Shown piece after piece: positions 1 through 20,000 of a stretch of 20,000 nt of DNA (its first letter is position 1; each line of letters starts with the position of its first letter). Both the position numbers and the translations under genes were made by a program. The stretch spans positions 53,296-73,295 of the forward strand of contig JAYWIR010000137.1 of the NCBI GenBank assembly GCA_036172245.1, in the 5' to 3' direction. Under the pieces are notes generated by a model. It had not been told where the DNA came from. It did no database searches and saw nothing but the letters and a program-made list of their open reading frames with translations. The stretch comes from Raillietiella orientalis (lineage: Eukaryota).

Positions 1-1965
1 TAGGAGAGCGGATTGGGAAGCGGAATCGCTCCCGTTCCATGCCACATCGCGCCCAGCTGAGTCCTGGGAGCCGAGGATCATCGCCTCGGTCTCCGTGCAA
101 GAGCCGAAACCGCCTCCGGCAACAGGCTCGTGCATTCGCACTTTAGCCCGGCTCGCTGCCGGCTTACCCCGGGATGCGCGCTCCATTTGTTTGCACTTGG
201 ACTCCACCTCGGAGTCCGAGTGCCGGGCGCTTGATTAACGTTTTGCCATTCTCTTTTTGTTCCGGCAGGTGGAGGCTTGCCCTGCCCGCGCGGAGGTCGT
301 CGCAGTCGCCAACGCAGCTTCCGGAGCTTTGGCTTCCGCAGCCGCCCTCTCGCGCGAAGCGACGGAGACAGAGCACGCAGCCGTAGTGCGTACCTGGGTA
401 CGCACGTTCTTCGGCGTGCTTCTCTTTTGCCTCCCACCCACCTTAAGGATGGGGAATATTGAAGGGTCAACCTTCTTCTTCCCCTTTGTGGGCGTCCTGG
501 AGACTCGAGTCCAGCCCGCGTCGGGGACGCCCTCCTGGGAGGCCGACGCCTCCCTCAATTGTTTGGCCGGAGATGCCGGCTCAGGTTTCGCGCTCGCGGC
601 GAGAGACGGCTCCGTCCCCGTTATGCACTGCACCTGCTCCTTAGTTGATGCGGGCGAAACGGCGGTCATTGCCGTCGTCCCACGAGGCGCTATTGCAGCC
701 TTCGCTGCTGGTGCCTTCGGCGTGGAAGACGTGATCTCCACCGCCGTAGGAGTAGACTGCCGTTCAGAGGCAGCTCCGAGGGTACCCGCGCACGGTTTCC
801 CGTGTACTCCGCTGGACGCGCAAGCGGACACGGACGGTTCAGCAGCCTTGATTGAGTGTGTGCCCGCACTCTTAGGCTGCTTCGAAGGTGGCGATTTTCC
901 CCCAGGGCGACGTGGCATCTTTGCCGTCTGCGCGGTTGTCTGGGATAGTGGCTTTCCTGATGCAACCGCGCCCTTATTCGCGGGACCGCCACTCGAAGAT
1001 GCCCCGCCCTTCGCGTCCGATTTCTCCCGTGGCACAACGGGGGATCTTTTCGGCGCGGACGGGGTCGATTGTTGGCGGCTTTTCGCCTGTCGCTTTCTCT
1101 TCAGCTCGGCGCACTCTTTGATGGAGTGGCCGAGCTGTTTACAATAGCGGCAGTTGCGTGGAGGGCACGTCCACGGACGGTGGCCCTCTGCACCGCAAAT
1201 GCCGCAAGCCGGTCGCTGACCTGCAAATTTAAGGTGGACGATCGCATCGCCCACCTGCAAGTGCGGAGGCATTTGCCTATTATCCGCCATGGTGACACGC
1301 GCCATGGCAAGTCCGCTGTGGAGAGATGCAATCCTTTTGATCGGATTGTCTGCTCTCCACAGCGCGTGCACCGTGGCGAATACACTTAGTGCAGCGACGA
1401 GCACGCAATCGGGCGTGTCCACCTGGACGGCGGATAATCGGACCACGAACGACTGGTCCATGGCCGACGGGACGACCTCCTTCCTGCGGATATTTAGCAA
1501 GGTGCGGAGAAGGAGATGGACTAGGGATGCCTCTTTGCAGTGCTCCTCCCAGCTTTCGAGCGCGTTAACCGGCATGACGGCCAGGAGGTCGCCCTCTCGG
1601 ACCCGACGCGCAAAAGCTCGTCCCACAAATTTTCTCCGACCCCGTCGAAGATAGAAGCACTCACCGGATAGCAGAGCGCAGGCTTGTAGCCATGGGCTGC
1701 ATATGCCTGCAGCTCTGCTTCGTCGGGCGGTGCTCCGTTGGCTGCCGCCACCTTGACGACGGCGGCGAAGCTTCTCGCCGGTGGCGAGACACAAGAATCA
1801 GAGGTGGACCGGACATCTGGAGTAGAGTCTCTACTGCCAGTAGCAGCCTCCACATCCATCTCTTGCTGCAGGGGCTCCGTGGACATCCCAGTGGACGCAC
1901 TCGGGCGCACCACACACAAGAAGACGGAAAGGATTCACGTTCGAGGAGCAACACAGAACACGTCC
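1..1965 (-). mobile_element. 5' part of non-LTR retrotransposon (5' UTR + ORF1), divergent subfamily; runs off the window's left edge
   Basis: Family 5' motif GGACGTGTTCT starts at 1965, followed by a 79-nt UTR and ATG at 1886. ORF1 is homologous to 14409-16160 (AYAAHGYKPALCY ~ AYKASGYKPSLVY; MDQSFVV ~ MDRSVVV). Confidence 0.9.
235..1886 (-). pseudogene. ORF1 (gag-like nucleic-acid-binding protein), frameshifted near 1603
   Basis: N-terminus is in ORF 1521..1919 and the remainder in ORF 235..1794. Two knuckles, CGICGAEGHRPWTC and CRYCKQLGHSIKEC, precede a low-complexity tail. True C-terminus uncertain. Confidence 0.85.
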
Positions 1966-1966
1966 T

Positions 1967-2520
1967 TGCAGCGTTGTCGTCGAGCGTATTACCGACAGCT
2001 GCGAAAAAGAACTAAACGCTACCGATGACAATCCCTCTGATGACTCTGTCAACAGCGAGGAGAGCGAATCGGCGGCGGCGTCTTTCATCGACACCACCAT
2101 CGATGTAGCCTTCGCGCGAGCCTCTGAGGAGCTCGCTGCCTCGTTGCAGCCAGAAACCTCCACGGCAAGCAAAAAGGCCGTTAGGCGTCGGACCTCCCCT
2201 CAGGAGTCCCCCACTTCCGACCCCGAGGTGGAGGCCGGAAGCGAAGCCTCCGTTTGCACGGCACCACGCAAGAAGGCTGGACGTCAGTCCACAAAGCCGA
2301 GAAAGCTCGTCTCTCCCGTCGAAGCGGAAGAGATGGCTTCCGCAAGCGAGGGTGCCATGAGCGTGAGAAACTCGCGGGACCCGTTGCCCGAGAGACTCCC
2401 ACGCGCGGACAAGTAGGGGATGTAGGGGAAACAGGCCGGAAAGGTGCTTCAGGTGCCTTAAAAGGCGTAAACCCCCATGGACATGCCGCAGGCGTGATCT
2501 CTGCAGAATAAGTGCAAGAG
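1967..2520 (+). mobile_element. ORF1 C-terminal fragment
   Basis: CSVVVERI, DVAFARASEELAASL and SDPEVEAGS..APRKKAGRQSTKPRK match the ORF1 tail of other copies (ECTVALERI, AAFAQAAEELA, LDLEAGS..PPRKSGRKSQKPRR). Likely ORF1 stop TAA at 2509-2511. Confidence 0.85.
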
Positions 2521-2521
2521 G

Positions 2522-3153
2522 TTTCTCACCCGGTCACGCCGGGGTGTTTATTTCATATAAATACAACATAAAGAAATATATAAAATAAACCGGTTTGGGA
2601 CCATGCACCCAACCGACGAAGCACAAGTATCAAGAGTACATTGCTGGCACGCAGGTCAGAATTACACAGAACGGTTTGTGGAAACTGGGAAAACGAACAA
2701 ACAAAAACAAAAGAAAAAGAAATCAGCGGGGGACGCGGGGACAAGGATCTTTGAAATCCCTCTGGTTCTCTCCGGGGTAATAGTGATGGCACCGGTATTC
2801 TAGCAGAGCGAGCGGGAAAGGGGTATGGGTGGTCTTCAGGACGTAGTGGTCACCGGATGAAGCCCTTCCTAAAAGTCTGTAAACCGGCGGTGGATGCCGG
2901 CGATGTCCTCTTTCACCTTGTCACGAAGATGAGACCACTTAGTAGAGTTTTTCATGAATTCTGCTGCAAACCGGTGAGCCTCGCTTCGCTGCGCTGACAA
3001 CTCCAGGGCGTAGCGGGCCTTCACGATGGCGCGAATGCAACACATGGTTGCGACAATCGCGCCTACCGAAAATCCATTCCTCCTGAAGAAGCGCCGCAGC
3101 ACATCAATAGCAGTGCCTCTCTGCGGCAGGATGGCTGAAATCAGCCTGTTTTT
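2522..3153 (-). mobile_element. 5'-truncated copy: ORF2 C-terminus + 3' UTR + 3' terminus
   Basis: ATMCCIRAIV..KWSHL..IAGIHRRFTDF* (stop 2869-2871), T-rich UTR, AATAAA (2552-2547), hairpin CCCGG-cgtga-CCGGG, then TGAGAAA. Confidence 0.88.
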
Positions 3154-3156
3154 TAG

Positions 3157-3308
3157 CCTGGCTTCGGCGGTCGAGGAGTTCTTCGACCTGCTGCATCGGG
3201 GAACCAGACTTACGGTGAACAGGGCGAAGTCGCCCGTGATGCCAGTTGATGCGACGTGGGCAGAACAGCAGGTCTGGGTCCGTTTAGGGATCACTGCGGT
3301 GAAGTACT
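3157..3308 (+). mobile_element. Short RT fragment (region just after YADD)
   Basis: ASAVEEFFDLLHRGTRLTVNRAKS..WVRLGI..KY matches AKAVGHFFDLLSRGTGLQVNRAKS..WVRLGI at ~18190-18345. Confidence 0.9.
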
Positions 3309-3604
3309 TCTTGCTTCGGTCACGCAGTGGCGCCAAATGGCAAGATAAAACTCTTTACTCCCCCTCCTGTTCGTGAGGTCCAAGCCGCTCGGTGCGTACA
3401 CCTTGGTGACGATCACATAAATCGAATCGAGCCACCTGACAGTCAGCTAACCGAGACGACCGTGATCGTCGAACCACACGCCCCGAGCCACGGCCTCGAC
3501 AACTTTCCGCAGTAGGGAGAAAACAACGCAACTCTTCCGCTAGCCACAACTATACGATAGCCGCCCTCAGAAGATCCGTTAAATCTCCTGCGCTCCTACA
3601 GTGG
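3309..3604 (-). mobile_element. APE endonuclease fragment from a divergent subfamily (not shown as an ORF in the track)
   Basis: Manual translation GVWFDDHGRLG*LTVRWLDSIYVIVTKVYAPSG aligns to GVRFDDEGRVGQLILSWSDSIELIVTNVYAPSG. Confidence 0.8.
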
Positions 3605-4147
3605 ACACGTGTTTTCGTGTCTTCGTCGAGAAAGACGTGGTCCAAGCTGCTGAACATCCCGCTTATTTCTGTCAACAGGTTGCGCGTGCGCATGGCAGCG
3701 CCCAACTCGTTGATCGAGTTCCCCTGTGCTCCGGGCTGATCTGAGAGCAGGCGGACGTTGAAATCGCCTGCTATCATATGCGCCTTTCGCACGTCCACGT
3801 CCACCAGCCATTCGCGCTTCAAGGTTTCCAGTAACACGTCGCGCTGCTGGTATCCCTGTTTACCGCTAGGAGCGTACACATTGGTGACGATGAGGTCGAT
3901 CGAATCGGACCATCTGAGAATCAGTAGGTCGATCCGTCCGTCGTCCCTAAAGCGCACGCCCTTCACGGGTGCGTTAATGGCTGACTTTAGGAAGAACGCG
4001 ACCCCACAAGTGTTGCGGGCGCCGCATCGCCAGTACAACCGCCCTCCCGCGATCGTTTCTATCTCCTGGGAGTCTTTTGCGGTGATCACGTGGATCACCT
4101 GCGAAAGCACCAGGTCAAAATCTCGCAAGGTGGCGGCTGTATCTCGA
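3605..4147 (-). mobile_element. APE endonuclease fragment
   Basis: ORF 3550..4128 has CGVAFF, NVYAPS, AGDFN and SLDHVFL, colinear with ~16240-16780. Confidence 0.92.
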
Positions 4148-4202
4148 AATTTTGTAATTTCAAAATTTTAGTACTCAAAGCCCCGGCTTACCCAGGTGAA
4201 AA
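4146..4202 (+). mobile_element. Extreme 3' terminus (~55 nt) of an element
   Basis: Similar to 6593-6650; ends CCCCGGCTTACCCAGGTGAAAA. Confidence 0.8.
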
Positions 4203-4510
4203 ACCTTGTATACAAGCGATGGCTTGTATTCAGAGGCCCGATAGGCGGCTTCCTCGCCAATGGCCTTAGCACTGGGGCGGCGACCATTTCACTCCAAGTC
4301 TTCGCCGGCTGCAAAGACGTTCCAGGGACTATTGCCCCATAGCTCTAGGTCTTGTGGTAGGACTTGCCTCTCCCACAACTACATCCATCGCATTGTCCTC
4401 TGGCACGGCCGCCATCGGACACCGACGACCCACACTTTACACCTGACTACACTAAAAACTCCGGTTGCTTCTCAGACAAGCGCTGGCGGAGCGACCAAAA
4501 AAACACGTCC
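4203..4510 (-). mobile_element. 5' terminus + ORF1 N-terminus, cut at YKPSLVYKV
   Basis: GGACGTGTTTT at 4510, CGGTGTCCG-ATG at 4415, MAAVPEDNAMDV.., then EEAAYRASEYKPSLVYKV; frameshifted. Confidence 0.88.
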
Positions 4511-4534
4511 ACCCACACCGGCTTTCGGCGATGC

Positions 4535-5773
4535 CACCCGGATACGCCGGGACGTTTATTAAAAACATTTCGACGGTCAATACAGAACGTGGTACAAGGC
4601 CTCACTGACGGCCACGCAATACTGGAACTGCCGGGACACCGGAACGCAGCCCGGTGTGGCTCTTCTCGGCAGTGGAGGGGGATGGAAGAGAAAAATGGAA
4701 TAAAATAAAAGAGAAAAACAAACCACAAAAAAAAAGTTTGGAGGGCCGGGAAGGGATCACAGAAAACTGCTGGGAGCGCCCATCCTTTGCAGGATGCCTT
4801 CTAGTTCCATTTTCAATTTTCCTAGATGGGGTAATCGGTTAGCTCTCTGCAGGAAGCGAGAAGCATACTCGGTGACGTCCCTTACGATGCAGTCTTCATC
4901 TTTGGCATCACTCCAGGCCGCCACGATCCCACGAATGCAGCAAAGTGCTGCCAGGCCTGCGGCTGGACTGAGGGCGTCCCGCACGAAGACAAGACTGAAG
5001 ACACATCCAACATTGCCATCATCCGGTATCCGGAGGGCCGTTTTAAAACGATCCCAAAGAATCTCGACGGCAGGGCATTCAACTAACAGGTGAGGGAGCG
5101 AATCCCGCTCCCCACACCTGACACACGCAGGATTTACTCTTACTCGCGTCCAGTGGAAGCGGCGCGCGTTGCAGGGTAGACCCCAATGCAGCCACAGTAG
5201 CGCCGATTCTTGCCACTTCAGGTGAAGAATCCTGGATCCAAGTAGAACCGGGGGCCACTTCAGGTCATCCAATCGAATGCCGAGCAGCTCGCCCCATCTT
5301 CTTAATCCACGCGGCTGGAGACTAGGGGTCGTTGCATCTGTCAACTCTCCCATGGTCCAGCCGCACATCATCTCTCTGCCTGCGATACGGCAGCAGACTT
5401 GCCACCTTGGCTTCCGGCTTTCGTGAAGCGCCCTTTGGAGGAAGGGCATCGCCGTAACAAGGGGTGTGCCTTCCGCCCACTTGCAACTCGTTGGAAATTC
5501 AAGAATTTCACGGAGAATTCGGCGGGCGTAAAAGCCGACTCGCAGGCAGTTCATCCGGTCTTCGCAGCTCTGGTTCTGCTTGGCCCAGGTGCCAGCAGTC
5601 TCCTCTAGCAAAGCGGAGCAGTTGGCGGGGCCACAAACCATCCAGTTCTCCTTTGCCAGGGTTGCCATGCGGCCGAGCAGTAGACCGCATCTTCGAATCT
5701 TCCGGCCAGGGCACAGAAGAAACGATGCGAGTCCTTCGCAGAGGGACACACGCCTGTCCAGGAGGCGGGCCGG
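4535..5773 (-). mobile_element. 3' part of element: ORF2 C-terminal third + 3' UTR
   Basis: ORF 4757..5749 has LKWQE, HWGLP and CVRCGERDSLPHLLVEC. The terminus reads AATAAAcgtCCCGG-cgtat-CCGGGTG. Confidence 0.92.
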
Positions 5774-6650
5774 AAGGCGTGGACGTCCCGGAAACTAGCT
5801 GACGCTAGTACCCCGAGTGTGCCGCCGAACGGAATTGTACGCTGGGGCGCGCTGCTCGGCATACCTCCGAAGGAGGTGAAGTGGCCCCCAGCGTCTTGGG
5901 ACAACGGCACCCTTCACCTGCAGTGGCAGGAGACGGCGTTTCTTCTGCTCTTCTGGGACTTTTAAGCAGAGCACGCCTGTCTCACTGGACATCGGGGAGT
6001 ATTGATGCTAGTTGTGCAGAGTGCGGGGAAAGAGAAACCTTCTCCCACTTAATCATAGAATGCGTTGCCCTCCTCGAGATGTGTAACCGACTCTTGTCGA
6101 TCCTGAACATTCCGGTGGGCGACCCAAAACATCTATTGAGACGCCTCCTACGCGAGATGGCTTGTTAGCCTCCGGATGCGTAGCAGTGCTCTGCTGCATA
6201 CGCGGTATCCTGCATAAGTGGACCGCGTCAAGGAGAGGAAGAACCAGTCGGAGAGCCATCCACTGGGCAGCGATCTCTTTGGAGAAAGCCTGTTGTTGGC
6301 GCCGACTTAATATACATTTGCCGGCATTTGTTTGCATCCGAAACCGGATGCAAAGGCCTCCTCACGGCGCACCGTGATTCCCTATCTCCCTTTCCATTCC
6401 CCAAAAACATTACCCTCTACACGTTATTCTTTGTTTCTTTGTTTTATTTTTTGTTTTGCCCGCCCCGGCGCTAGTGAGAAGGAACATATCGGCGTCCGGG
6501 TCGGTAAGGACAAGTGCAACGACACTACGATAAACTTCTGAATGTCCTAAAGAGGAAAATTAACCTTGTTTAAAAATTCAGACCTTATTATGAAATTTTT
6601 GTATTCTCAAAAATTTTAATAATAAAAGTCCCGGCTTACCCTGGTGAAAA
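5774..6650 (+). mobile_element. 5'-truncated degenerate copy: ORF2 C-terminus + 3' UTR
   Basis: KAWTSRKLADASTPSVPPNG..WG, CAECGERETFSHLIIEC and VAVLCCIRGI, with stops and frameshifts. AATAAA at 6621, ends GGTGAAAA. Confidence 0.9.
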
Positions 6651-6719
6651 ACCTTGTATACAAGCGATGGCTTGTATTCACAGGCCCGATAGGCGGCTTC
6701 CTCTGCCAAGGCATCCGCA
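6651..6719 (-). mobile_element. Tiny ORF1 fragment
   Basis: Reverse complement encodes ADALAEEAAYRACEYKPSLVYKV. Confidence 0.85.
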
Positions 6720-6720
6720 A

Positions 6721-7054
6721 TAGTTTTTTAGGTTAGCCAGCGCAAACATGTCGTCGGCTGCCCAGTGGGCCCATCTGCCACAGGGCGTAAGGAGAGAGAT
6801 CGCCGGCATCCATCGCCGGTTTTGAAAGGAAGGAACGGATTTACCAAAGACCCCTGTCCCCTGCCCTCCATATTTTTCTTTTATTTTTTTTATATAGTAG
6901 TGTGTTTGTGGTCCCTTCCCTCCCGTTCCGGACTTTCGGCATACCGACCTGCGTGTCGGGGATCCCACCCCCTTCGTCTCTTGTTTTCCCCTTTGTCCGG
7001 GAACCCTGTTCACGGATAGTTTATAATAAACGCACCGGCGCACCCAAGTGACAA
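6721..7054 (+). mobile_element. Short 5'-truncated copy: last ORF2 codons + 3' UTR
   Basis: AQWAHLPQGVRREIAGIHRRF* matches the C-terminus at 2869-2950. T-rich UTR, AATAAA at 7025, degenerate hairpin, then TGACAA. Confidence 0.8.
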
Positions 7055-7324
7055 CCAGCCACCCCCCTGCGATCCTCTCGATCTCCTGGGCGTTCTCCCC
7101 GGTAATCACGTGGATCTCCTGCAGGAGTGCCAGGTCGAAGTCACGCAGGGTGCCGGCCGTGTCCCGTCCGTTGCCGTCGTCGCGCAGCCCGTTGACGTCC
7201 CAGCAGGCTACGCGTAATCGACGGCGACAGGCGAGCCCAGGTGTTACTCCTGGGAAAGTGGCAATGAGACTCCCGCCACCTGGTCGGGCATGACGGATGG
7301 AGGCATGGGGGCACCGCCCAGCGG

Positions 7325-7500
7325 TTCTCCCACCTCCATGGGGGCCGATTCTTCGGCTGCGTTGGACGGTAAGGGGGAGCGGTTCTCAGCACTCTGCTCC
7401 CCCTCTTCCATGACCATCTCCTCCGCAGGCTCCACCGGTGGAAGGGGGAGGCAATGCCCTAGCTGCTCCCCCTCCTCCATGGGGGTGGCCGGCTCCTCGG
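7325..7500 (-). repeat. Three degenerate ~23-24-codon repeats (MEEGEQ) in ORF1 tail
   Basis: PMEEGEQ / VMEEGEQ / PMEVGEP. Confidence 0.75.
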
Positions 7501-8699
7501 TGGCGGAGGGTGGGAAAATTCCTCCCTCCGTTCCCACGCTGCCGGCTTCCCACTCGGCTGCCGGTGCGTCCCCCTCGCTCTTCGTCGGGATGCGCCTCTT
7601 GGGATTCTTGGACTTCCGTCCAGTCTTCTTCGGAGGCGCCTCCGTGAAGGAGGACGCACTTCCGGCATCCGGGTCGTGGTCACCTGTCGGAGATGCCCTG
7701 GTCGCGGCCGGCCTTTGCAAGGCCTTTTGCGCTCCGTTCTCACGGTCCGCGAGTTCGGCCGCGAGCTCTTCCGCCGCCTGCTGGAAGGCGGCCTCGTCGA
7801 TCGCGGCGAGCGCGTCGCGCGAACCCTCTGTTTGCACAGAGGGTTCGCCTTCCGTGATCGCGTTATCGTCGGCATCGACGCGGGGGATATCTCCCCCGGT
7901 GGCGGTCTCGGGTACCTCCACACGCTCCAAAGCGACCGAACATTCGCGGATCAACGCGCGGCGTTGTCTCCTATTTAAAGGAGACGTCGCGGTTTCCGCT
8001 GTTTACCCTTCGGTTTTCTTTGATTTCTTAGCTTTAGGCTTCGCCTTCTGCCAGCCTTCGCTCTTTTCAGCGTCGTCGGTAGATTCCATGACCGGCGTTT
8101 GCTGTACGGGCTCGGGCTCCGGCTGTGGGTTCCGCCTCACGGGTGCCTTCGCAGGGTTTTCCGTAGCCTCCGCGCGTTTCCCTTTGGCCTTTTTCAAGGC
8201 AGCGGGAGCCGGGGGTTCGCGCTTCGGGCACACTTTGCGGAGGTGGCCCTTCTCTCCACAGTGGAAACACTGGATGTGAGGGCACCGCTTTTTCAGGTGC
8301 CCTGTGGCATCACAGTGTCCACAGTACTTGGGCTTGCCCACGTACCAGACGTCGACGGTCTCGTTGCCGACGTCTAGTTTGTGGGGTAGCCCACCGTTTT
8401 CGTGAACAGTTACACGGGCACCAGCCATGCCACTAAACAGTCTTCCGTAACTCTGGAAGACGTTGGGCTTGGGCCATAGCGCGTGAACCGTTCAGTATTT
8501 TACGAGTTCCTCCTGCACGTCGGCTTTCAACATGCGGAGGGTGACTCCCGTGAGGTGCGTCACCACGGAGCGATCCTCCGTTACCGGGAAAACCTTCCGG
8601 CCTTCCAGTGTGATTGGCGTATTCAAGGAGGGCTGCAGGAGATGGGGCTGCAGCCACTGAACTCCAGGTCTTCGGCGATGCCGAAGACGCATTCGAGGG

Positions 8700-8880
8700 T
8701 GCAGCTGCCCCCTTTTTCAAGGAGGCGGTCGCGCCCTTTTCCAGGGTTGCGGTTGTCCCCTTTTTCAAGGGGGAGGTTGCACCCTGTTCCAGCGGGGCTT
8801 TTGCCCTTTTTTTCAAGGGGGCATTTGCCCTCGCTCCCGAGGCGGCGGTCGCCCCCTTTTTCAGGGGTGCGGCTGTCGTC
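8700..8880 (-). repeat. Coding minisatellite, ~24-bp unit, about 7 copies (APLKKGAT-like)
   Basis: APLKKGAT, APLKKRAK, APLEQGAT, SPLKKGTT, ATLEKGAT, ASLKKGAA. Confidence 0.85.
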
Positions 8881-9068
8881 GCCTCCGTGGGGGCGGTTGC
8901 GTCCACCTCCGTGGGTTGGGGAGAGGAGCAAGGCTCTCCCCCTCCTATATCCATCGCGGTGTCCTCAGGCATTTCCGACATTGGACACCGCAGATGATTC
9001 AGACACAAACACAATCGAAATCAACCGCTTTACACCAGGCGCGGAGGAGCGCTACAAAATCACGTCCG

Positions 9069-9570
9069 CACGCCAAGCTGCTAGCAGGGCTATGGGCTTC
9101 GCTTTTGGGGCAGGTGGCCGAGTCCATAATTAGCCCGGAGAAGACCTATGCTGTTCCCGGGCAAAGTATGGACGCCAACCTCTTCTTCAAAAGAACGTAG
9201 ATGCACCTGCAAATGAGAGAAAAGAAAGGGAAAGGGAAAATCGGCAACCCCACATTGGGGCCGCCAGCGGGTCTGGGAAGGGACCCTTGGGCGGGGAAGG
9301 GAGCCCTAGCGCTCGCAGTGGATCTCCACAAGTCGTTCGACTGTGTAGAGCAGGAACTCCTCTTGGAGCTCCTGGGTCGCATGGGCTTCCCACCCTCCCT
9401 GATTTCCTACCTGGGCTCTTGCTGGCGGAATGCGAGGATTACCGTCTTTTTCAGTGGACAGAAGGTGTATGGCGTGCCGGTGTGGCGGGGCATAAGGCAG
9501 GGCGATATCCTTAGCCCCCTGCTCTTCAGCACCTACTTTGAGTTGATGCTGAGAGCGTACAGGGAGCAAC
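9069..9570 (+). mobile_element. RT fragment
   Basis: AKLLAGLWASLLGQVAESIISPE..AVDLHKSFD..RGIRQGDILSPLLF; closely similar to ~17600-18095; premature TAG at 9198. Confidence 0.93.
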
Positions 9571-9810
9571 TCTTTTTGATTTGAGGAAGGGAGCTCGTGA
9601 GGGCGCCAGAAGTCGGCCCCGACGCAGCCGACCGATGGCGGCAACCTCGCCGGTGTGCTCAGCACGCCGAAAGCTCGCCGCCAAGGCTCCACTGGATTTG
9701 ATCGATGTTGGTGGCCAGGGTCGTGAGGAACTTGTCGAAACCGCTTCTGCAACGAAGACACATGATGCGCCATGCACGAAACGCATAGCTGCCGAAGGTG
9801 AGTGCGCTGC

Positions 9811-10742
9811 TCACTCGTATGTCGTGTGTTCATCCTCACTGCCTAGCAGCGAACCAGCCACGCAGGAGAACTGGAACGAAGAACAGGGAACATGGGTATC
9901 CGAAGGAGGAAACGCAGCGTTTTCGAAAGGCACCACCACGGAGAGGGCGCACAGGCGAGGCGCACCTGCATCTCGCTCAGCGCACCACCGTCCGCCAGCA
10001 GCGCGCGGTAATCGAGCGGCAGCGCCTCCGCGCCGCCGTCTGGCTCTTGCGTACGGAACCTGAGGAAGCACCGCGCCACGAATTGGTGTTGTGCGGTACT
10101 CTTGGATGCCGCCAGAGGGAACCTCGTTCTTTCCCCTCACTCTGAGGGTCACCGGTTGTTCTCTCACCTGCCGGGTGCATCTTGCTCGTTCTCGCTCTGT
10201 TCGACGTCACCAAGCACCTGCGCGATGTTTTGAAGCCTGAAACAAGGTGCAGGAGGAGAGCGCAACATGGAAGGAGAGCACGCTAGCAGCGCCCGGCGAC
10301 TGGACTCACCGGAGCGGGCAGACGTCGAAGAGGCGGGCCTGCGTCAGTTCGCTAGCGATCTGAAAGGAAGGGAGAGGGACCGTGGGGCGGAGTAACAAAC
10401 ACAAGAGAGGATGCGCGGATGGCGGGCGAATGGAGGCTCACGCAGGGCACCGAGGAAAGAGGGCGAGCGCGAGTGGGAAGGCGCCCGAGCTGACTGCGAG
10501 AGCTAAGTAGGCGCTTTGCCTGCTACGCGTAAAGCGAACCGCCACCGCGGCATTACGTCTTTGGAAGGGGCTCGTTGGGCGGCCGGGCGCACAGCAGACT
10601 CGACGGACGGATGGATGGTCCGCCGGGCTTCGGAGGGATTTTGCCGCCACTCCTCTTTCTTGCAGTCGTTTACCTGCATGCTGCGATGCGTGTTCATCGA
10701 TCGGCGCGCAGACGTCCTTTGCTGGCAATGCCGGAGCGGCAT
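9811..10742 (-). CDS. Putative spliced gene or gene relic, unknown product (~139 aa, 6 exons)
   Basis: Exons 10742-10674, 10519-10442, 10359-10310, 10236-10168, 10059-9966 and 9870-9811. Five GT..CAG introns of 73-154 nt, several with clear pyrimidine tracts; the spliced frame stays open. First and last exons are least certain. Confidence 0.6.
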
Positions 10743-10771
10743 TGTCGTCAGCTGTTGGTGACGTCACGGCG

Positions 10772-12879
10772 TTTTTACCGGGATATGCCTGGGCATTTAT
10801 TTAAAAAAATAAAAATATATGTAATTTTCGGGTGAAGAACCTGATGCTTCAGCACAAAGCAGCCTGCTTCTTGCCGGTTCCAAACGGGCGAGTCCTTCCA
10901 ACGCGCGGGAACGGAAAGAAAAAAACGAAACAAACAAAAAATGTAAAAGTTGGAGAGAGTACTTATGTTTGGGGAGGGGGGGGCGGGAAGGGAATCACAT
11001 TGCACGCTTAAAGGTCCTCTTGATCCTGTTCAGGATCTTCACAAGCTGCGTCCGTTGTGCACCCATTTGTCTCCACCTGCAAATGTTTCTCACAAAAAGG
11101 CGAGTCCAATGTACAGCATTGCCGCAAGCTTGGCGCCTTCTTCTTGTCGCGTTACAAGCCGACACGATCCCTCTAATCCAGCAAAGAACTGCCACAGAAG
11201 CGGGAGGGGACAAGGCATCACGCAAGAAGAGTCGCCTAAAAACGTTTCTAGGGCCGCCTCCGCGAATGTCCAGGATTGCTGCAAGACGATCCCAGAGAGG
11301 GCGGAGAGCAATGCACTCAATAAGGAGGTGGGGGAATGTCTCTCTCACCCCGCACCGGTCGCACTGGGAATCCACAGCCCCCCGAGAGGAGTGAAAGAGG
11401 AGTACCTTGAAGGGTAAACCCCAATGTATCACGAGCAGCGCCACCTCCTGCCATTTCAGGGGGAGGGAGTCACTATTCCAAGACGCTGAAGGCCACTTCA
11501 TCTCCTCCGCAGATAGTCCGAGTAGCTCTCCCCAGCGTCGGATTCTGTTGGGCGGGACACTCGGCGTCGCAGCGTCCGCTAGCTGCCGAGATGTCCACGC
11601 CTTAATCTTTTGTGTCCTACTTTCCATGGTGCAGGACACGGTCCATTTCCCCTGCTCCTTGTTGTCTCTAGCGTTTTGTAGGAAGGGCAGCATAGGAGCA
11701 AGCGGGGTTATCAGGGCCCACAGAAGCTGATCGTGGGACTCCACGATCTCCTGTAGCGTCCAGCGGGCGTGCCTTTTCAGGCAAGTGTTTTTTGTGCCCG
11801 CCGGAACGTGAAGCTTTTTCCAAGTGGAGACTGTCTCGTGCAACCATGCCGAGTCGTTCCCTGGGACGCAGGAGATCCAGGTGTTCTTCCGAACCACAAC
11901 GGCCATGCGCGGCAGATGAAAGCCGGAGTGTGCTTGTCTGCGGTCGCGCGCCCAGAGAAACGAAGAAAGTCCGCCATATCCTGAGGCTCGCCGGGCCAGA
12001 AGTCGTGCTGGACCGCACCAAGGCGTGTCCCACAAATCCGCCGCAAGGGCGAGAGTCCTAAACTGAAATTGTACTTCCATGCGGTCCAGCGTAAGTAGGC
12101 CAAGTCCACCGTCCTTACGTGGAGCGCACAAGTCTTTAAGACGCACACGGGACCTCCCTTTGCCCCAAAAAACTGTCCTCAGGAGGCCCGCTGCTCGTTT
12201 TCGAATAAAATAAGGGGCGGGGCAAACAAAATTAGGGAGCGAAGGAAGGGGGCGCAAACGCGTTCCACACCGCGGCCCGTTCCTGCAAGTAGAACTTGCT
12301 TTCTTGGAACGGACCGATCGCCAACGCTGCGTTTTGAAGACGCTCGGACCAGGCTTCTGCTGCGCAGAAATCTCCCAACGGAACGCCAAGGTACTTGAAT
12401 CACCTGCCCGTGGGGATCCCCAAGCGGATCCAGTCCGACCGTCCAGCGCACGCCGAACCGACAAAGACCATGGACGACTTCGCCCTGTTCACCTTCAGGC
12501 CCTTCCCGCGGTGCAGCAACTCGAAGAAATCCTCGAGCGCACTCGCCGGGGTGGACCCGGGAAGCAGCAGCAGAAGATCGTCTGCATAGGCCGACACAGC
12601 AGGCGTGCCGGGCCACGAGCTCGGCAGGGTTGCCAGAGTTACCCTGTATGCCCTCAGCACCAACTCAATGTAGATGCTGAAGAGCAAGGGGCTCAGGCTG
12701 TCACCCTGCCGGATGCCGCGGCGCACTGGCGCGCCATACACGTGCCGGCCGCTGAAAACAATATTACTCAACGCGTTGCGCCAGCAGCAGCGCAGGTAGG
12801 ACTGGAGCACGGCCGGGAAACCCATTCGTTCCAGGAGCTCCAAAAGGAGTTCCTCGTCGACGTAGTCGAATGCTTTGCG
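10772..12879 (-). mobile_element. 3' half of element (RT from KAFD onward, C-terminal zinc motif, 3' UTR), interrupted by the 12880-19969 insertion
   Basis: RKAFDYVDEELLLELL, RQGDSLSPLLF, AYADD and CDRCGVRETFPHLLIEC; stop at 10995-10997; ends AATAAAtgcccaggcatatcccggTAAAAA. Confidence 0.93.
12866..12879 (+). repeat. Target-site duplication, left copy (TCGAATGCTTTGCG)
   Basis: Exact 14-bp direct repeat of 19970-19983. Confidence 0.95.
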
Positions 12880-12890
12880 TCGGCTAGAGA

Positions 12891-14320
12891 GGACGTGTTT
12901 CCTCGGTGCTCGTCGTGCAGAAAACCGTCCCTAGGTGTAGGCTTCGTGTGTGGTGGTGGTCGATCAGGCAGCAATGCCTGACGCGACCACCAGTACGTGT
13001 CAAAGGGCGGTGGCAACGTCGCCTCCTGAGGAAATGCAGTGCCAGGTGGCGGCGGCAACGTCGCCTCTAGAGAAGGTGGAGTGCCAGGGGGCGGCGGCAA
13101 CGTCGCCTTAAGTGGCGAAGGAGGTGGGGGCGTCTGCCCCCACAAAACCGGTGCCCGCTGCAGCGCGGGCGTGAAGCGCCGCCGTGTCGGCGCCATCGCC
13201 TGCAACCGCGGCGGAATTATCTGCCTTTGTGGAAGAGGGGTATAACCCATCACTTTTCTACAAGGTAGGAAATTTGTATTCTGCTGAGAGTGCGCGCGCC
13301 TTTTCGAAGGGGATGCGCGCTCTCGATGTTAAAGAAGAGGAGCTCTGCGCTATGACCATTCGTAGCGGGGGGCAGTACGTAGAGGTGATCTGCAAACATG
13401 CAGATCTGGCCCTACGTCTGCTTAAAACCCGTGTGGTTATGGGGACACGCAGGCTCCTTCCCATTACGGAGGACCACAGTATAATGGTCCACCTTTTAGG
13501 AGATACCGCGCTGATGCGGAAAGAACAGGTTTGCAACGCTTTGGAACAGTTCGGAACGGTCCACGCGCAGTGGACGAAAGTAAGTCCTTTCGAGGACTAC
13601 ACGGGGCTGCAACACGGCCTCACTGCTGCGCGCGTGACCGTTCGGGAGGGCTGCACTCTTCCCCACAAACTGGTGGTTGGCGGAGAAAGCGTCGACCTCT
13701 GTTACGTGGTTAAACCCAAATACTTTGCCTTCTACAACACGTCGGGACACCTCAAAAGGAGGTGCCTCAACGTATGGTGCCAGGTATGCGGGACAATGAA
13801 CCACACGAGAAAAGTGTGCCCACAATCCGCTGTGCGAGTGGTTTCCGCGATGAACCTAAAAAAACGCGCGCCTGCTACACCAAAGGCTGGCGGCGAAGGC
13901 TGCCGCTCCAGCTGTGCCACCCACGCCCGTGATCCAGGCCGCAGCCGACACCCCGACAACGAATGCCGAAAACATCGACAACAGCGATCAGGTGCCGGAA
14001 TGGCAAGAAGCCAGAGCGGAAAACAAAAAGTCGAAGAAAGAACGACGAATTGAAAAAAAGCTCGCCTACCAAAATAAAAAACAGCAGGTTAGCGAGAATT
14101 TAAAAGAATGCAGCGTCGTCGTGGAACGCGTTCCCGCCCAACGCCGCAAAGTAGAAATCGCTGCTACCGACGAGCAACCCACTCTTGAAAATGTCAACAG
14201 CGTGAGGAGAGAACCGACGGAAGCGTCCGTCATCGAGATCGTGATCGATGACGCCGCCTTCGAGCGTGCGGCGGAGGAGCTGGCTGCATCGTTGGAGCCA
14301 GACCCCTCCACGGACAGTAG
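12891..14320 (+). mobile_element. 5' part of an element (5' UTR + truncated, degenerate ORF1)
   Basis: GGACGTGTTT at 12891, ATG at 12974, premature TAA at 13109, frameshift near 13900. First knuckle decayed, second CQVCGTMNHTRKVC. Ends after AAFERAAEELAASL. Confidence 0.9.
13006..13108 (+). repeat. 42-bp coding tandem repeat, ~2.5 copies
   Basis: GGCGG(T/C)GGCAACGTCGCCT at 13006, 13048 and 13090. Confidence 0.9.
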
Positions 14321-14408
14321 GAGGACGTGTTTTTCCTTCACTCCCCAAAGAGTAGTAGGAAAGCGCTTTTTCTTCTGTGTGGTGTTTTGTGTAAATCGTC
14401 GGTGTCCA

Positions 14409-16160
14409 ATGGCCACGACGCCAGAGGACACCGCGATCGAGGTGGGAGTGGGGGAGGCTAGTTCGCCCCCACAGCCTACTGGAGCAGGGGCAGCCGCCCT
14501 GGAATCATCCCCGGCCACGCCGAGGACATGGAGCGCCATGGTGGCCGCGCCCAGCGCAGAAGCCATGGCGGAGATGGCCGCATACAAGGCCTCCGGGTAC
14601 AAGCCATCGCTTGTCTACCAGGTAGGCAACTTGTTCGACGGCCGGACAGCGCGCGCCTTCAGCAAAGCGTTGAAGGACGCGAATGTTACAGAGAAGGATC
14701 TGGACGGCCTCTCCGTCCTCAGCGGCGGGCAGCGGGTCGAGGTGGTCTGCAAAGATGTCACCTTGGCTCACCGCCTAATCCATGCGCCGCTTAACGTAGA
14801 CGGCCGCAAGATCCTGCCAGTATCCATGGACCGCTCCGTGGTGGTCCAAATGACTGGCATCACCAGCCACATGACGCGGTCAGCGGTTGGTGAGGAATTG
14901 AGAAAGTACGGTGAGGTGCACGCACTGTGGCCGAAACCCTCCATTTTCGACGGCTTCGATAGCCTTTTTGGTGGGCAGGCTGCAGCGCGGGTCACCGTAC
15001 GGGAGAATTGTAGGCTTCCCCACAAACTACAGGTGGCGCAAGAAAACGTCGACCTGTGGTATGTAGGGAAGCCCCGGTATTCCGGGCATTGTGATACCGT
15101 GGGACACCTACCTAAAAGGTGTCCCAATATACAATGCCATTTGTGCGGGGAGCGGGGCCACGTTCGGCGCGTGTGTCCCAAACGCCCCACCCCGGTTCCC
15201 CCTGCCGCGAAAAAAGCGCAGGGGAAACGTGCTTTAAAGGTCTCTAGACCTAAAGTAGAAAAGGGCCAGCACAAGCTGCCAACACCTCAACCTCCGGAGC
15301 GTAAGCCGGAGGATAAACCTTCTGAAACGGTGGAAGGCGAAGAGGGATGGCAGCTTGTAGAGGCCAGAAAGCCGAGGAAACTCCCACCCGCGGAGAGCAA
15401 AGAGCGCAAGACGGCCGGTAAGCCGAAGAAACCCGGTCCGCGCTCGAAAACTTTGCGCGAGTGCACGGTAGCACTGGAACGAATCGTCGTTCCCGAGATT
15501 GCCACCCGGAGCGTCGATCCTCCCCTTGCCGTTTCCGCTGCGCCCGAGGCTCGCGACGGCGAACCCTCTGTTTACACAGAGGGTGAGCCGCGCGACATAG
15601 CGGCGGTCGAAGCCGCGGACGCCGCATTCGCGCAGGCGGCGGAGGAGCTCGCGGTCACGCTGGCCGAGCGTGAGAACCCCTCGCGCAAGGCCGTGCGAAG
15701 GCCGGCTCTGGCTAAGAAGGCCCCCACAGGTGAGTTAGACCTGGAGGCCGGAAGCACATCCTCCTCCTCGGAGGCACCCCCCAGGAAGTCGGGACGCAAG
15801 TCCCAGAAGCCCAGGAGGCGCCTCCCCTCCACCAGCGAGGAGGAGAAGACGGAAGCCGTCGCCAGCGTGGGAAATTCGGAGGAGGAATTCCCACGCTCGG
15901 AAGCCGTCGATCCGGCCACCCCCATGGAGGAGAGTGAACAGGGGGGTGAAGTCCCCCCTGCAGGCGCCAACCCTGAACAGCCCGCCCCCATGGAGGAGAG
16001 CGAACAGGTAGGCGCGACTCCACCTGCGGGTGATCCGGCCGACGCGCGGGCACCGATGGAGAAGGGGGACCAGGTGCCTTCAGCACCTGACCCCCCTCCT
16101 CTACCTAGCGTCCCGCCCCAGCAGGTGGCGGACGCCGCACTGCCATCTTCCCAGGAGTAA
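14409..16160 (+). CDS. ORF1 protein, 583 aa (RRM-like region, 2 zinc knuckles, acidic/Pro-rich tail)
   Basis: Open frame from CGGTGTCCA-ATG. Knuckles are SGHCDTVGHLPKRC (first Cys mutated) and CHLCGERGHVRRVC. Confidence 0.9.
   Translation: MATTPEDTAIEVGVGEASSPPQPTGAGAAALESSPATPRTWSAMVAAPSAEAMAEMAAYKASGYKPSLVYQVGNLFDGRTARAFSKALKDANVTEKDLDGLSVLSGGQRVEVVCKDVTLAHRLIHAPLNVDGRKILPVSMDRSVVVQMTGITSHMTRSAVGEELRKYGEVHALWPKPSIFDGFDSLFGGQAAARVTVRENCRLPHKLQVAQENVDLWYVGKPRYSGHCDTVGHLPKRCPNIQCHLCGERGHVRRVCPKRPTPVPPAAKKAQGKRALKVSRPKVEKGQHKLPTPQPPERKPEDKPSETVEGEEGWQLVEARKPRKLPPAESKERKTAGKPKKPGPRSKTLRECTVALERIVVPEIATRSVDPPLAVSAAPEARDGEPSVYTEGEPRDIAAVEAADAAFAQAAEELAVTLAERENPSRKAVRRPALAKKAPTGELDLEAGSTSSSSEAPPRKSGRKSQKPRRRLPSTSEEEKTEAVASVGNSEEEFPRSEAVDPATPMEESEQGGEVPPAGANPEQPAPMEESEQVGATPPAGDPADARAPMEKGDQVPSAPDPPPLPSVPPQQVADAALPSSQE
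15915..16075 (+). repeat. Three ~66-bp repeats (PMEESEQ) in ORF1 tail
   Basis: PMEESEQ / PMEESEQ / PMEKGDQ with 22-codon period. Confidence 0.8.
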
Positions 16161-19100
16161 CACCTGGGCTCGCCAGTCGTCGTCGGAATCGCGCGGCCTG
16201 TTGGAATGTCAACGGGCTGCGCGACGACGGTAACAGGCGAGATACAGCCGAAACACTGCGGGAGTTCGACCTGGCCCTGTTGCAGGAGATCCACGTGATT
16301 ACCGCGGCAGACGTCCAGGAGATGAAGACGATCGCAGGGGGTCGGCTGTACTGGCAATGCGGCATCCGCAACACCTGCGGGGTCGCGTTCTTCGTGAAGC
16401 CGGCCATCGACGCGGCCGTGAAGGGCGTGCGCTTCGATGACGAAGGTCGGGTCGGTCAGCTGATTCTCAGCTGGTCCGACTCGATCGAATTGATCGTCAC
16501 GAATGTGTACGCCCCCAGCGGTAAACAGGGATACAGCGACCGTACCAGGCTGCTGGAATCCCTGAAGCGCGACTGGCTGGCGAACACGTGCGTGCGGAAG
16601 GCTCACCTGATAGCGGGAGATATCAATCTCCGTCTGCTAACAGGTGAGCCAAAAACACAGGTGAACGCGATGAACGAGTTGTGCGCCGTCATGCGTGCAC
16701 GCAACTTGTTCGCGGGTGAGAGGGGAATGGTCCGCAGCATCGCCCACGTCTTCCTCGACGCTAACCTGTGTTCACGGGTCGGCAAACGTGGGATGGTTGC
16801 GTCAACGTTGTCGGACCATTTTCGGTTAATTTTCGAGATGCGCCCTCGCGACAAAGGACCGACATCCAGGGACTGGCGTCTGCCGGGGGACTGGACGCGA
16901 CTCTCAGGTGCGAAGGAACACCTTCGCGAATACCTGAGAGGCGTCACGCTCCGGAATCTCCAGGACTGGGACCTTTTGAAGGAATCGGTCCGGGAATTCT
17001 GCGAGCAGTTCCCCCTGGACCGCCTGCCCTTCGGATTTGGCGAGGGTCCTCGGAACCATCGGGCCTATTTACAGGCCCGTAGGTACGAGCGAACCCCTAA
17101 TGACCGACGCTTGGCCGAGTACCGCGCCGGGACCGAACGCCAAGCCTGGCAATCCGGGTCGGCCAGCTTGCTGGACGACCAGGGACGGGAATGTTCGTCC
17201 CCGGCGTCGGTACGGCATCTCGTGCGGAGTTATTATTCCTCCCTTTACGCCATGGCGCCCCCGGATCAAGACGCCTCTCGGCTCTAGCTTCCGGATGGTG
17301 CTGCGGCAATAGGGGAGGAGGAGTCGTTAAGCATCGATGAGCCTTTTACCACCGGCGAAATTCTCGCCGGTATCAAAAGGCTCAAGAGGCGGAAAGCTCC
17401 AGGGGAAGACGACTTGCCCGCGGAGTTCTATCAGAGCTTCGCGGAAGAGCTAGCACCCCTGCTGCTTCAGCTGACAAGGCTGTTTCGAGACGAAGGCCAT
17501 GTTCCCGCCTCGTTTCGGTCAGCCAGAGTGAGGCTCCTTCCGAAAGGGGGAGACCTTAGGAATTTGAACAACTGGCGTCCGATCACGATTGTGAATACGG
17601 ACGCCAAGTTGGTTGCCGGGCTATGGGCTTCGCGTCTGGGGCAGGTGGCAGAATCCATAATTAGCCCGGAGCAGACATATGCTGTTCCCGGGCGAAGTAT
17701 GGATGCCAACCTCTTCTTCGAGAGCACATGGATGCACGCGCAGAGGTGTCAAAAGGAAGGGAAACGAAAAATCGGCAACTCCACTTTGGGGCCGCCAGCA
17801 GAGCAGGGAATGGACTCTCGGGCGGGGAAGGGGGCCTTAGCGCTCGCAGTCGATCTCCATAAGGCGTTCGACTTCGTTGACCAGGGGCTTTTGTTGGAGC
17901 TCCTGGGTCGCATGGGCTTCCCACCCTCCTTGATCAAGTACCTGCGCTCCTGCTGGCGTCATGCCATAATTTCCATCTCTTTCAGCAGTCAGAAGGTGCA
18001 TGGCTTGCCGGTGCGGCGGGGCATCAGGCAGGAGATAGCCTGAGTCGCCTGCTATTCAGCACCTGCTTTGAGTTGGTGCTGAGAGCCTACAGGGTGACTT
18101 TTTCCTCCTTGCCGAGCTCGTGTCCCGGCACGCCCGCCGTAGCAGCCTATGCCGACGACCTTCTGCTCCTGTTACCTATGTCCACCCCGGCGAAGGCGGT
18201 CGGACACTTCTTCGATCTGCTCAGCCGTGGGACCGGACTGCAGGTCAACAGGGCGAAGTCGTCGGTGGTGCCAGTAGGTGCGGCGTGGGCAGGGCAGCAG
18301 GACTGGGTCCGTCTGGGGATCCCCACGGCGAGGTGCCTCAAGTACCTTGGTGTGCCGTTGGGTGACTACTCTCTAGCGGAAGCGTGGTCCAGCTGTCTTC
18401 AAAAAGTTGAGACGGTGATCGGCCCGTTCCTGGAAGGCAAGTTTCACTTGCCGGAACGGGCCGCGGTTTGGAACGCCTTCGCGGCCCCCCTCCTCCGCCC
18501 CATGCTTTTTGTTTGCCCCACCCCAAGAGTAGTTAAAAAGAAGACGAAGGACATCCTCCGCATCGCCCTTTGGGGCAACGGGAGGGCCCGAGTCCCTCTG
18601 AAGGACTTGTGCGCTCCGCGTCGGGACAGTGGTCTCGGCTTTCTGACATTGGAGCGGCTGGAGCTGAAGCTCCAGTTCGATTGTCGGCACTCGTTCCAGA
18701 GTTGTGGTGCACCTGTTGGTGCGTCCCTGCACGTCTCCTCCTTCAGCAAGCCACCGGCAAGATGGGACTTACGTCGTTTCCTGCACTCCATCGGAGCCGC
18801 ATCAACCGATGTGGGATTCAGCTACGTAGGGTGGTTGCGCTGGCGAGTAAAAATCACGGATGGATCACCTGTCTCCCCGCGAACGGTAGTGCCTGGTTGC
18901 AGGAAACCGTTCGCACGTGGGGACAGTTCGGCATGCAACCCTCACATCAGGAACGAAGGTTCCTGTTTGGGTGTTACAGAAGTTGCACGCTCCGTGAGAT
19001 CCTCAAGGATCCTAAGAAGAGAGCGTGGTCAGGAAGTACCCCCCTCGCTGCTACGCTGGACTCCCTAGTGGAATATCAGGACAGCGATGTTGCGGCGAAG

Positions 19101-19748
19101 TGGGAAGTTACAATAAAAATCTCCGGGAAGGAGAAGAAGCAGAGAGATTGGAATACGGGCCAGCTAACTGATGCTGCGACCCCGAGTACGCCTCCTAATG
19201 GACTTCTGCGCTGGGGAGAGCTGCAGGATGTTCCCATTGAACATCTGAATTGGCCCCCGATTCTTATGAACACTTCCATCCTCACCCTAAAATGGCAGGA
19301 GTCGGCATTCCTGTTGCAGCACTGGGGACTCCCCTGCAACGCCCGTCGACACCACTGGACCTGGGGAGCGGTGGATCCCAATTGTATAAGGTGCGGGGAA
19401 CGGGAGTCCCTCTCCCACCTCCTAGTGGATTGTGTTGCCCTTCAGCCCCTTTGGTTCCGCTTTGCCGCGGCCATCGGTATCCCTTGCAGTAACCCCAGGG
19501 ACGCAGTAAAAGCTTTCTTCGTTGCCGACGCCCTGCGGCCAGCGTCCTCGATAGCAGACTTGTGCCGCCTTCGTGGGATCGTCGCCGCCTGGAGCACGGC
19601 GACGGGAGGACCTAGCGATCAGGAAGCCATCCAGTGCGCCTCCGAATACCTGAGGAGGGCGTCGCGATGGCCTTACTTGGATGTTCACAACAAACAAGAG
19701 CTTGCCAGCAAACTGAGAGGGATGATACGGCCCCAGCAGCAACAGTGA
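16109..19748 (+). pseudogene. ORF2 (APE endonuclease - RT - zinc motif), with 1 stop (17285) and 2 frameshifts (~18031, ~18680)
   Basis: WNVNGL, LQEIH, NVYAP, GDIN and SDH (APE); KAPGEDD, NWRPIT, DLHKAFD, GIRQ, AYADD and KYLGV (RT); CIRCGERESLSHLLVDC. Confidence 0.95.
16150..16168 (+). promoter_or_regulatory. Putative ORF1/ORF2 translational-coupling stem-loop
   Basis: CCCAGG-AGTAACA-CCTGGG with the ORF1 TAA in the loop; identical at 7254-7236 (minus). Confidence 0.55.
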
Positions 19749-19938
19749 TCCCTTCCCGTTCTCTCCCACCCTTTGTTTTTTTTTTGTTCAGTTTTTTTTT
19801 GTTTTTCCCCTTTCCCCTGCTGCCTTGGTGGACCGCACCGGTCTAGAAACAGGTGGATTGGCAGGCGCCGTGGTTCTAAACTTCTGGCTGGAGCATTGCC
19901 ACAGCCATTAATAATTTGTTTACAAAGTTTATTTTTTT

Positions 19939-19969
19939 AATAAACAACCCGGAGAAATCCGGGTGAAAA
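19939..19969 (+). terminator. 3'-terminal signal: AATAAA + 7-bp GAAA-tetraloop hairpin + GAAAA
   Basis: ACCCGGA-GAAA-TCCGGGT at 19947-19964; variants at six other 3' ends. Confidence 0.75.
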
Positions 19970-20000
19970 TCGAATGCTTTGCGCAAGTCGACCGCGACTG
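19970..20000 (-). mobile_element. Right TSD copy and continuation of the interrupted minus-strand element
   Basis: Reverse complement encodes VAVDLRKAF(D), joining in frame to YVDEELLL at 12864 and below. Confidence 0.92.

Follow-up and report, generated by a model that had tools for sequence, protein, structure and literature searches.

Background

In the chimeras ascribed to 5' transduction by L1, a long interspersed nuclear element (LINE), an upstream transcript start is fused to a near full-length L1 (PMC13174262). In this work we analyse a stretch of 20,000 nucleotides (nt) of DNA from Raillietiella orientalis, hereafter the window (GenBank assembly GCA_036172245.1, contig JAYWIR010000137.1, positions 53,296 to 73,295 of the forward strand; coordinates below are those of the window). 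In it, one target-site duplication (TSD) encloses the front part of one LINE, named E1, and a full-length LINE of a second subfamily, named E2. The locus resembles L1 5' transduction in having one TSD pair, a 5' piece that begins at the start of the upstream unit, a LINE of full length and a foreign promoter region that was brought along. It differs in that the upstream unit is a LINE of another subfamily and not an exon of a host gene, and no splice junction is evident. Its 3' end consists of a hairpin and a short A tail, and the element is probably not an L1 in the strict sense.

Chimeras explained by template switching or RNA ligation (U6/L1, Alu/L1, the tripartite MGL of Magnaporthe (PMC2104539), and R2 joined to U12 or to transfer RNA (tRNA) (PMC3414825)) share with our locus a bipartite, sense-oriented and TSD-flanked structure that goes back to one target-primed reverse transcription (TPRT). 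The partner in those chimeras usually has its whole 3' end, however, and the LINE is usually truncated at its 5' end, whereas the present insert has a 3'-truncated partner and a full-length LINE. The hybrid R2/R1 elements of Drosophila known as SIDEs (short internally deleted elements; PMC3414825) also have a 5' part from one LINE family and a 3' part from another, and the machinery of the 3' family mobilises them; R1 likewise makes a 14-bp TSD. Those elements are described as short, non-coding and multi-copy at a specific site in the ribosomal DNA, whereas our locus has one copy of 7.1 kb that contains coding parts of both elements and lies at a non-specific site. In the SolRTE LINEs of Nicotiana (bioRxiv 10.1101/2022.11.04.512097), LINE bodies gain foreign 5' regions as well, and the proposals made there include 5' fusions and switches of template from one co-active LINE to another. 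The SolRTE exchanges were deduced from families of copies, whereas the present locus is one raw event with its TSD and a second, partial open reading frame 1 (ORF1). Our literature search returned no account of a LINE 5' piece and a full-length LINE of another subfamily within one TSD, a result that does not in itself show that none exists.

Results and discussion

Target-site duplication and host element

The features of the composite and of its host are listed below, with the untranslated region denoted UTR, the reverse transcriptase RT and the apurinic/apyrimidinic (AP) endonuclease APE.

11046-12879, minus strand: host, ORF2 of an older LINE (RT to C-terminus), 3' side of the break (tblastn, Pfam)
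12866-12879, plus strand: left TSD, TCGAATGCTTTGCG (exact word search, flank-word comparison)
12880-12888, plus strand: nine bases between the left TSD and the E1 5' motif (read from the sequence)
12880 to ~14319, plus strand: E1, 5' UTR and about 73% of ORF1, without ORF2 and without a 3' end
12889-12900, plus strand: E1 5' terminal motif GAGGACGTGTTT, exact (motif search)
14316-14327, plus strand: E1/E2 junction zone, as inferred from comparison with relatives
About 14320 to 19969, plus strand: E2, full-length LINE of a second subfamily
14321-14332, plus strand: E2 5' terminal motif GAGGACGTGTTT, exact (motif search)
14409-16160, plus strand: E2 ORF1, 583 amino acids (aa), open, with one intact CCHC knuckle (frames, regular expression)
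16109-19748, plus strand: E2 ORF2, APE-RT-zinc finger (Pfam, frames)
19939-19969, plus strand: E2 3' end, with AATAAA at 19939, a 7-bp hairpin at 19947-19964 and the tail GAAAA
19970-19983, plus strand: right TSD, TCGAATGCTTTGCG (exact word search, flank-word comparison)
19984-20000, minus strand: host RT resumes (VAVDL...; translation of the joined flanks)

An earlier reading of this DNA, made from the sequence alone (the sequence-only reading), had proposed a 14-bp TSD around the insert, and the two copies are exact and lie where it placed them. The 14-mer occurs in the window at these two positions and nowhere else, not even with one mismatch. Its chance expectation is 0.01, and none of 200 shuffles held two or more matches. 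It is also the longest word common to both flanks of the insert; among 3000 random pairs of windows of equal sizes, a 14-mer was shared in none and a 10-mer in about 2. The TSD-bracketed composite is real and far beyond chance.

Between the two copies lie 7,090 bases, an insert of about 7.1 kb. When these bases and one TSD copy were deleted and the flanks joined by script, the host RT motif VAVDLRKAFDYVDEELL was restored on the minus strand, as the sequence-only reading had stated. The minus strand of the joined flanks reads VAVDLRKAFDYVDEELLLELLERMGFPAVLQ..., in parallel to the stretch LALAVDLHKAFDFVDQGLLLELLGRMGFPPSL of E2's own RT. Pieces of the host share 40-66% aa identity with E2 ORF2, the similarity reaching down to about 11046 (tblastn), and in its part 12400-12930(-) Pfam recognises RVT_1 with 2.3e-14. 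The nearest solved chains of the host RT are L1 ORF2p (6.5e-13) and an R2-type 'RT-like protein' (2.7e-12), and the two are not separable. The insert is oriented opposite to the host LINE. No remainder of E1 follows E2, again as claimed: the host frame resumes right after the right TSD, with 17 bases of the window following.

A probable single integration event

LINEs insert from their 3' end. We consider it highly probable that a chimeric template was integrated once, because E1 is without a 3' end and a LINE insertion needs one. The sequence-only reading had come to the same conclusion, and the flanks bear it out, since one exact TSD surrounds both parts and neither part has a TSD of its own. 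The left and right flanks of E2 have no common word of at least 5 bases; those of E1 have the 5' motif in common and, apart from chance 5-mers, nothing else. Within the one TSD pair, E2 extends from its 5' motif to its 3' signature, and E1 begins 9 nt before its motif. These nine bases may be extra 5' bases, the trace of an upstream start, or untemplated. The 5' motif itself would mark the start of the transcript.

Terminal signatures shared by the LINEs of the window

We take 12889 and 14321 as true element starts and 19969 as a true element end because the 5' and 3' signatures of the family are found there. The sequence-only reading had also given each part a 5' end, at 12891 and 14323; the motifs are present, with their starts at 12889 and 14321. 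Motifs like GAGGACGTGTTT with one or two mismatches stand at three more 5' ends, all on the minus strand (4501-4512, 9058-9069 and 1956-1967), in each case upstream of the ORF1 start (by about 90-100 nt for 4512 and 9069). With up to two mismatches allowed, the window holds 8 matches, compared to 1.45 expected. The ORF1s behind the shared motif are only 28-48% identical, and the 5' UTRs otherwise do not align. One further match with two mismatches, at 6744-6755, is probably due to chance and was rejected; similarity to the copy labelled F begins only at 6709. The conserved form of the motif can be written G(N)GGACGTGTTT. Its GGACGTG fits what we take to be the consensus of the Drosophila downstream promoter element, RGWCGTG, here at the extreme 5' end and not at +28.

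The 3' signatures of the window are as follows.

2526-2551, minus strand: LINE 3' signature
4183-4203, plus strand: LINE 3' signature
4535-4560, minus strand: LINE 3' signature
6622-6650, plus strand: LINE 3' signature
7026-7052, plus strand: LINE 3' signature, with a diverged hairpin (GTG for GGTG)
19939-19969, plus strand: LINE 3' signature, that of E2

A terminal hairpin of the form CCGG-loop-GGTG, also written CCCGG-loop-CCGGG, is found near the LINE 3' ends at 2527, 4183, 4535, 6631 and 19949. The sequence ATAAA lies just upstream of the hairpin at every one of the six ends but that at 4183. Behind the hairpin, all but the end near 4535 have a short GA(A)n tail. This shared signature suggests that the RT recognises the 3' end, as in the LINEs called 'stringent', which would permit mobilisation in trans.

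We had also considered a failed ribozyme cut as the source of a co-transcript. A search of Rfam at E<=1 returned 8 weak matches that all scored far under their gathering thresholds. Neither 5' end had a self-cleaving ribozyme among them, and the idea was dropped for that reason.

The two elements

E1 has a 5' UTR of about 95 nt and an ORF1 that starts at the ATG at 12974 and contains a 42-nt tandem repeat (13005-13108, 2.5 units). The description of this part as a 5' UTR with a partial ORF1 holds, with the correction that the ORF1 is not intact: it carries an in-frame TAA at 13109, a TGA at 13172 and a frame change at 13864. For comparison with relatives we used contigs from a single public run, denoted X1 (Logan contigs, share 0.19), and those of relatives have two extra letters behind 13864. 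ORF1 of E1 holds one intact CCHC knuckle (CX2CX4HX4C, regular expression) and, at 13715-13760, a degenerate first knuckle in which both leading Cys are gone. It breaks off at the equivalent of residue ~427 of the 583-residue ORF1 of E2, to which it is 43.6% identical over 266 aa. A sense AATAAA is present in E1 at 14073.

E2 has a 5' UTR of 89 nt. Its ORF2 contains an APE domain (about 16202-16636), an RT domain (about 17540-18357) and a zf-RVT domain (about 19248-19454), with Pfam values of 4.8e-08 for Exo_endo_phos, 4.4e-09 and 2.5e-05 for RVT_1, and 2.8e-04 for zf-RVT, the last being under Pfam's own cut-off. An AP-endonuclease domain followed by an RT in one ORF2 (Pfam) is the arrangement of an APE-type LINE. 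The TSD, the lack of terminal repeats, the constant 3' end and the variable 5' truncation of copies (e.g. 9067-9564 and 4147-4203) likewise agree with a LINE. The sequence-only reading had called E2 complete; this is so for its length, and not for its coding capacity, as ORF2 is broken by a TAG at 17285 and by frameshifts near 18030 and near 18677. One X1 contig has one extra letter near 18030. At the 3' end, AATAAA lies 31 nt ahead of the last base, and the last 90 nt fold with z = -5.2 (0 of 200 shuffles).

The protein database contained one relative of the ORF1 fusion frame, P0001 (48% identity, precomputed PF00098), which is also the only one for E2 ORF1, and one match to ORF2, P0002, which is distant (28%). 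Pfam at E<=0.01 returned no family in either ORF1. The neighbours of ORF1 in the atlas are zf-CCHC/ZCCHC3-like clusters (0.90-0.94), and the atlas neighbours taken together are clusters of animals (Arthropoda, Chordata, Cnidaria); both serve as a lead only.

Two side observations concern E2 as well. Its first CCHC knuckle (15070-15115) is degenerate, with the first Cys gone, and P0001 has two intact knuckles. The first 125 nt of E2 fold with z -3.8 (0 of 200 shuffles), and the hairpin GGTGTCC-(AUG)-N-GGACACC at 14395-14437(+) holds the ORF1 start codon; it is conserved in the copy at 9069 (about 8945-8990(-)), and the copy at 4512 (about 4385-4430(-)) has the 3' arm GGACAAT only.

The E1/E2 junction

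In order to place the border between the two parts, we compared E1 with its relatives. Past the point of the break, the copies at 1967-2398 and 7247-8626, E2 itself and P0001 read S-(K/R/Q)-K-A-V/L-R; E1 reads S-R-R at the break (AGT AGG AGG), followed by the motif of E2. Judging from these two codons, AGGAGG may be common to both partners as a microhomology of 3-8 nt that would fit either of the mechanisms weighed below. As it may belong to both, the border can be placed only within 14316-14327. Past the frame change at 13864, the frame of E1 is open through the junction and the 5' UTR of E2 into E2 ORF1, as far as the TAA at 16158. Such an in-frame join has a chance of roughly 1 in 3, because two of the three frames of the E2 5' UTR are open.

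The 20-kb window contains no second copy of the junction. A junction 22-mer had 0 matches in metagenome_contigs, viral_contigs and genome_contigs, collections that hold no eukaryote genomes, so this count is no evidence of uniqueness. ORF1 of E1 gave 50 pattern matches in metagenome_contigs, of which 0 were confirmed.

At 85% likeness, 384 short contigs of X1 were placed on the window, 14 of them at 99% or more and 188 under 90%. Among the 8 of 395 pieces listed, none bridges 14320, 12879/12880 or 19969/19970, nor is there a joint that leaves the insert out; the lack of bridging pieces is uninformative on copy number, misassembly and the empty site. The pieces listed are 86-91% alike over E1 and 89-97% over E2, too few for a comparison of ages. 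As an observation in its own right, one X1 contig leads from 15496 to 12923 (depth 2, side 38, four letters between) and joins an E2-like ORF1 to an E1-like 5' UTR in the same orientation. At 85% likeness, this weakly suggests a reciprocal nest in a relative.

Origin of the chimera

The sequence-only reading had offered two explanations, read-through from the outer promoter of an older nest and template jumping by the RT. Both are still the leading ones; they are not separated, and the anatomy leans to read-through. We tentatively favour, with a probability of roughly 0.45, a read-through RNA from a same-orientation nest, with E2 within the ORF1 of E1, as the best explanation. At a donor locus, an E1 copy would earlier have received E2 within its ORF1, both elements pointing the same way. 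Transcription from the 5' end of E1 would then have passed through its 5' UTR and ~73% of its ORF1 into E2, and the RNA would end at the AATAAA and the terminal hairpin of E2. We place the stop of transcription at the end of E2 because the E2 3' signature and AATAAA lie there, and the rest of E1 would be absent because E2's own polyadenylation signal terminates the RNA. A LINE RT recognising the 3' end of E2 would copy the whole RNA, and one TPRT into the older, oppositely oriented LINE would make the 14-bp duplication. Seen directly are the single TSD, the restored host frame, the two 5' termini, the lack of the E1 3' part and the full length of E2, whereas we infer that there was a donor nest, that it was read through and that the RT used the 3' end of E2.

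Read-through accounts for three borders, i.e. the start of E1, the end of E1 as the insertion point of E2, and the end of E2, without extra assumptions. In its shape the locus agrees with the L1 chimeras of the 5'-transduction class (PMC13174262). LINE-in-LINE nests are also abundant, with at least 10 LINE fragments in the 20-kb window. Three of the six disabling lesions fall in E1, which makes up about 20% of the coding length (our own binomial estimate, P about 0.10), and this share points weakly to E1 as the older, outer partner.

Several points weigh against read-through. The contrast in lesions between E1 and E2 is not significant. Neither the donor locus nor a second copy of the junction was seen in a search confined to the window. 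The possible AGGAGG microhomology at the junction suits template switching equally well. The AATAAA at 14073 in E1 would have to be bypassed, and promoter activity of E1 is assumed.

Template switching or RNA ligation would also produce the locus in one event, with no donor nest, and we regard it as an unlikely but serious alternative. In the switch version, the RT copies the E2 RNA to its 5' end and then continues from an internal site of an E1 RNA to the 5' end of that RNA; in the ligation version, a fragment of E1 RNA is joined to E2 RNA ahead of reverse transcription. Either version explains the single TSD and the restored host equally well. It also fits that the copying of E2 had reached exactly its 5' motif when the switch took place, and the possible GC-rich microhomology in 14316-14327 could pair the end of the complementary DNA (cDNA) with the E1 RNA. 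However, end-to-end jumping by R2 requires the 3' end of the acceptor, so a broken E1 RNA or a switch at an internal microhomology must be assumed. With E1 broken off within ORF1 and E2 of full length, the features typical of such chimeras, which are not obligatory, are lacking: the 5' partners described usually keep the 3' end natural to them, next to a LINE that is usually 5'-truncated (PMC13174262). Precedents for the process itself exist: the R2 RT jumps to U12 small nuclear RNA and tRNA in vivo (PMC3414825), L1 chimeras are documented (PMC13174262), and in a fungal LINE double jumps have been deduced (PMC2104539).

The copy could instead be the daughter of an established chimeric subfamily, in which the 5' UTR and partial ORF1 of E1 are fused in frame to E2 and which would spread as a unit in the manner of the R2/R1 SIDEs or the 5'-switched RTE variants. 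The open frame from behind 13864 to the TAA at 16158 would agree with this, and hybrid LINE families (PMC3414825) and 5' switching (bioRxiv 10.1101/2022.11.04.512097) are known. However, a join in frame would arise by chance in about one case out of three, no second copy was found in the window, and the three collections searched with the junction 22-mer, none with eukaryote genomes, gave no match; we consider this origin improbable.

We also find it quite improbable that two insertions, of E1 with its TSD and then of E2 into E1 ORF1, were followed by a recombination in the homologous ORF2/3' regions of the two that deleted the rest of E1 and left a hybrid 3' part beside the old TSD. The region is indeed a heavily rearranged pile of LINE fragments, in which the nucleotide identity between the RT regions of separate copies goes up to 73-83%. 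However, the loss would need a break exactly at the last base of E2 or a homologous exchange in the ORF2/3' region, and such an exchange must keep a continuous ORF2 and 3' end. The 3' UTRs of different copies have no detectable similarity beyond the terminal signature, and the ORF1s of E1 and E2 are, as given above, far diverged at 43.6% identity. No switch of subfamily was seen along E2, where no E1-type ORF2 is at hand for comparison. An assembly artefact at the E1/E2 join is very improbable even in so repeat-rich a region, since mis-joins occur inside shared repeats and this join is at an element terminus with few shared bases at most, and since a mis-join would not create the matching TSDs at both outer junctions.

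Other LINE copies in the window

Positions 1-12865 are filled with LINE fragments, at least 10 in number, that lie on either strand and are oddly joined; this part looks like a heterochromatic or cluster-like graveyard of transposable elements. At 4146/4147, for example, the sequence passes from about residue 75 of an ORF1 to a 57-nt foreign 3' end and then to residue 44 of an APE. Two copies of one composite, at 4147-4260 and 6594-6709, have a plus-strand LINE 3' end in a minus-strand ORF1, and the insertion is at the same base beside the palindrome CTTGTATACAAG. The inserted part is ~85% identical between the two and the ORF1 part ~96%; they are either a duplicated nest or two independent insertions at a preferred site. 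At 4513-4560(-), one minus-strand LINE ends, and 22 nt further on comes the 5' motif of the next LINE; such a head-to-tail pair would permit read-through between elements. Tandem repeats at 8706-8872, of 24/48-nt units repeated about 7 times, lie 5'-proximal in a LINE subfamily.

Conclusions

As a single decayed copy, the composite has no evident function, and it leaves the knowledge of TPRT unchanged. LINE lineages in mammals and plants repeatedly swap their 5' ends, and the founding events rarely keep the signatures of insertion. The locus is a clean single example in which the TSD has survived together with the two partners and their 5' termini, and in which a LINE gains the promoter region of another LINE together with part of its ORF1 in one step. 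From this single locus, nests may be mobilised as units. We give a low probability to the chimera being, or having been when it was inserted, a working recombinant, with the 5' UTR/promoter of E1 and with most of its ORF1 in frame, by way of the open 5' UTR of E2, with E2 ORF1/ORF2, i.e. with a tandem double ORF1. If so, it would be a case of LINE 5'-end switching caught in the act, and nests would be a regular source of new LINE lineages in this genome.

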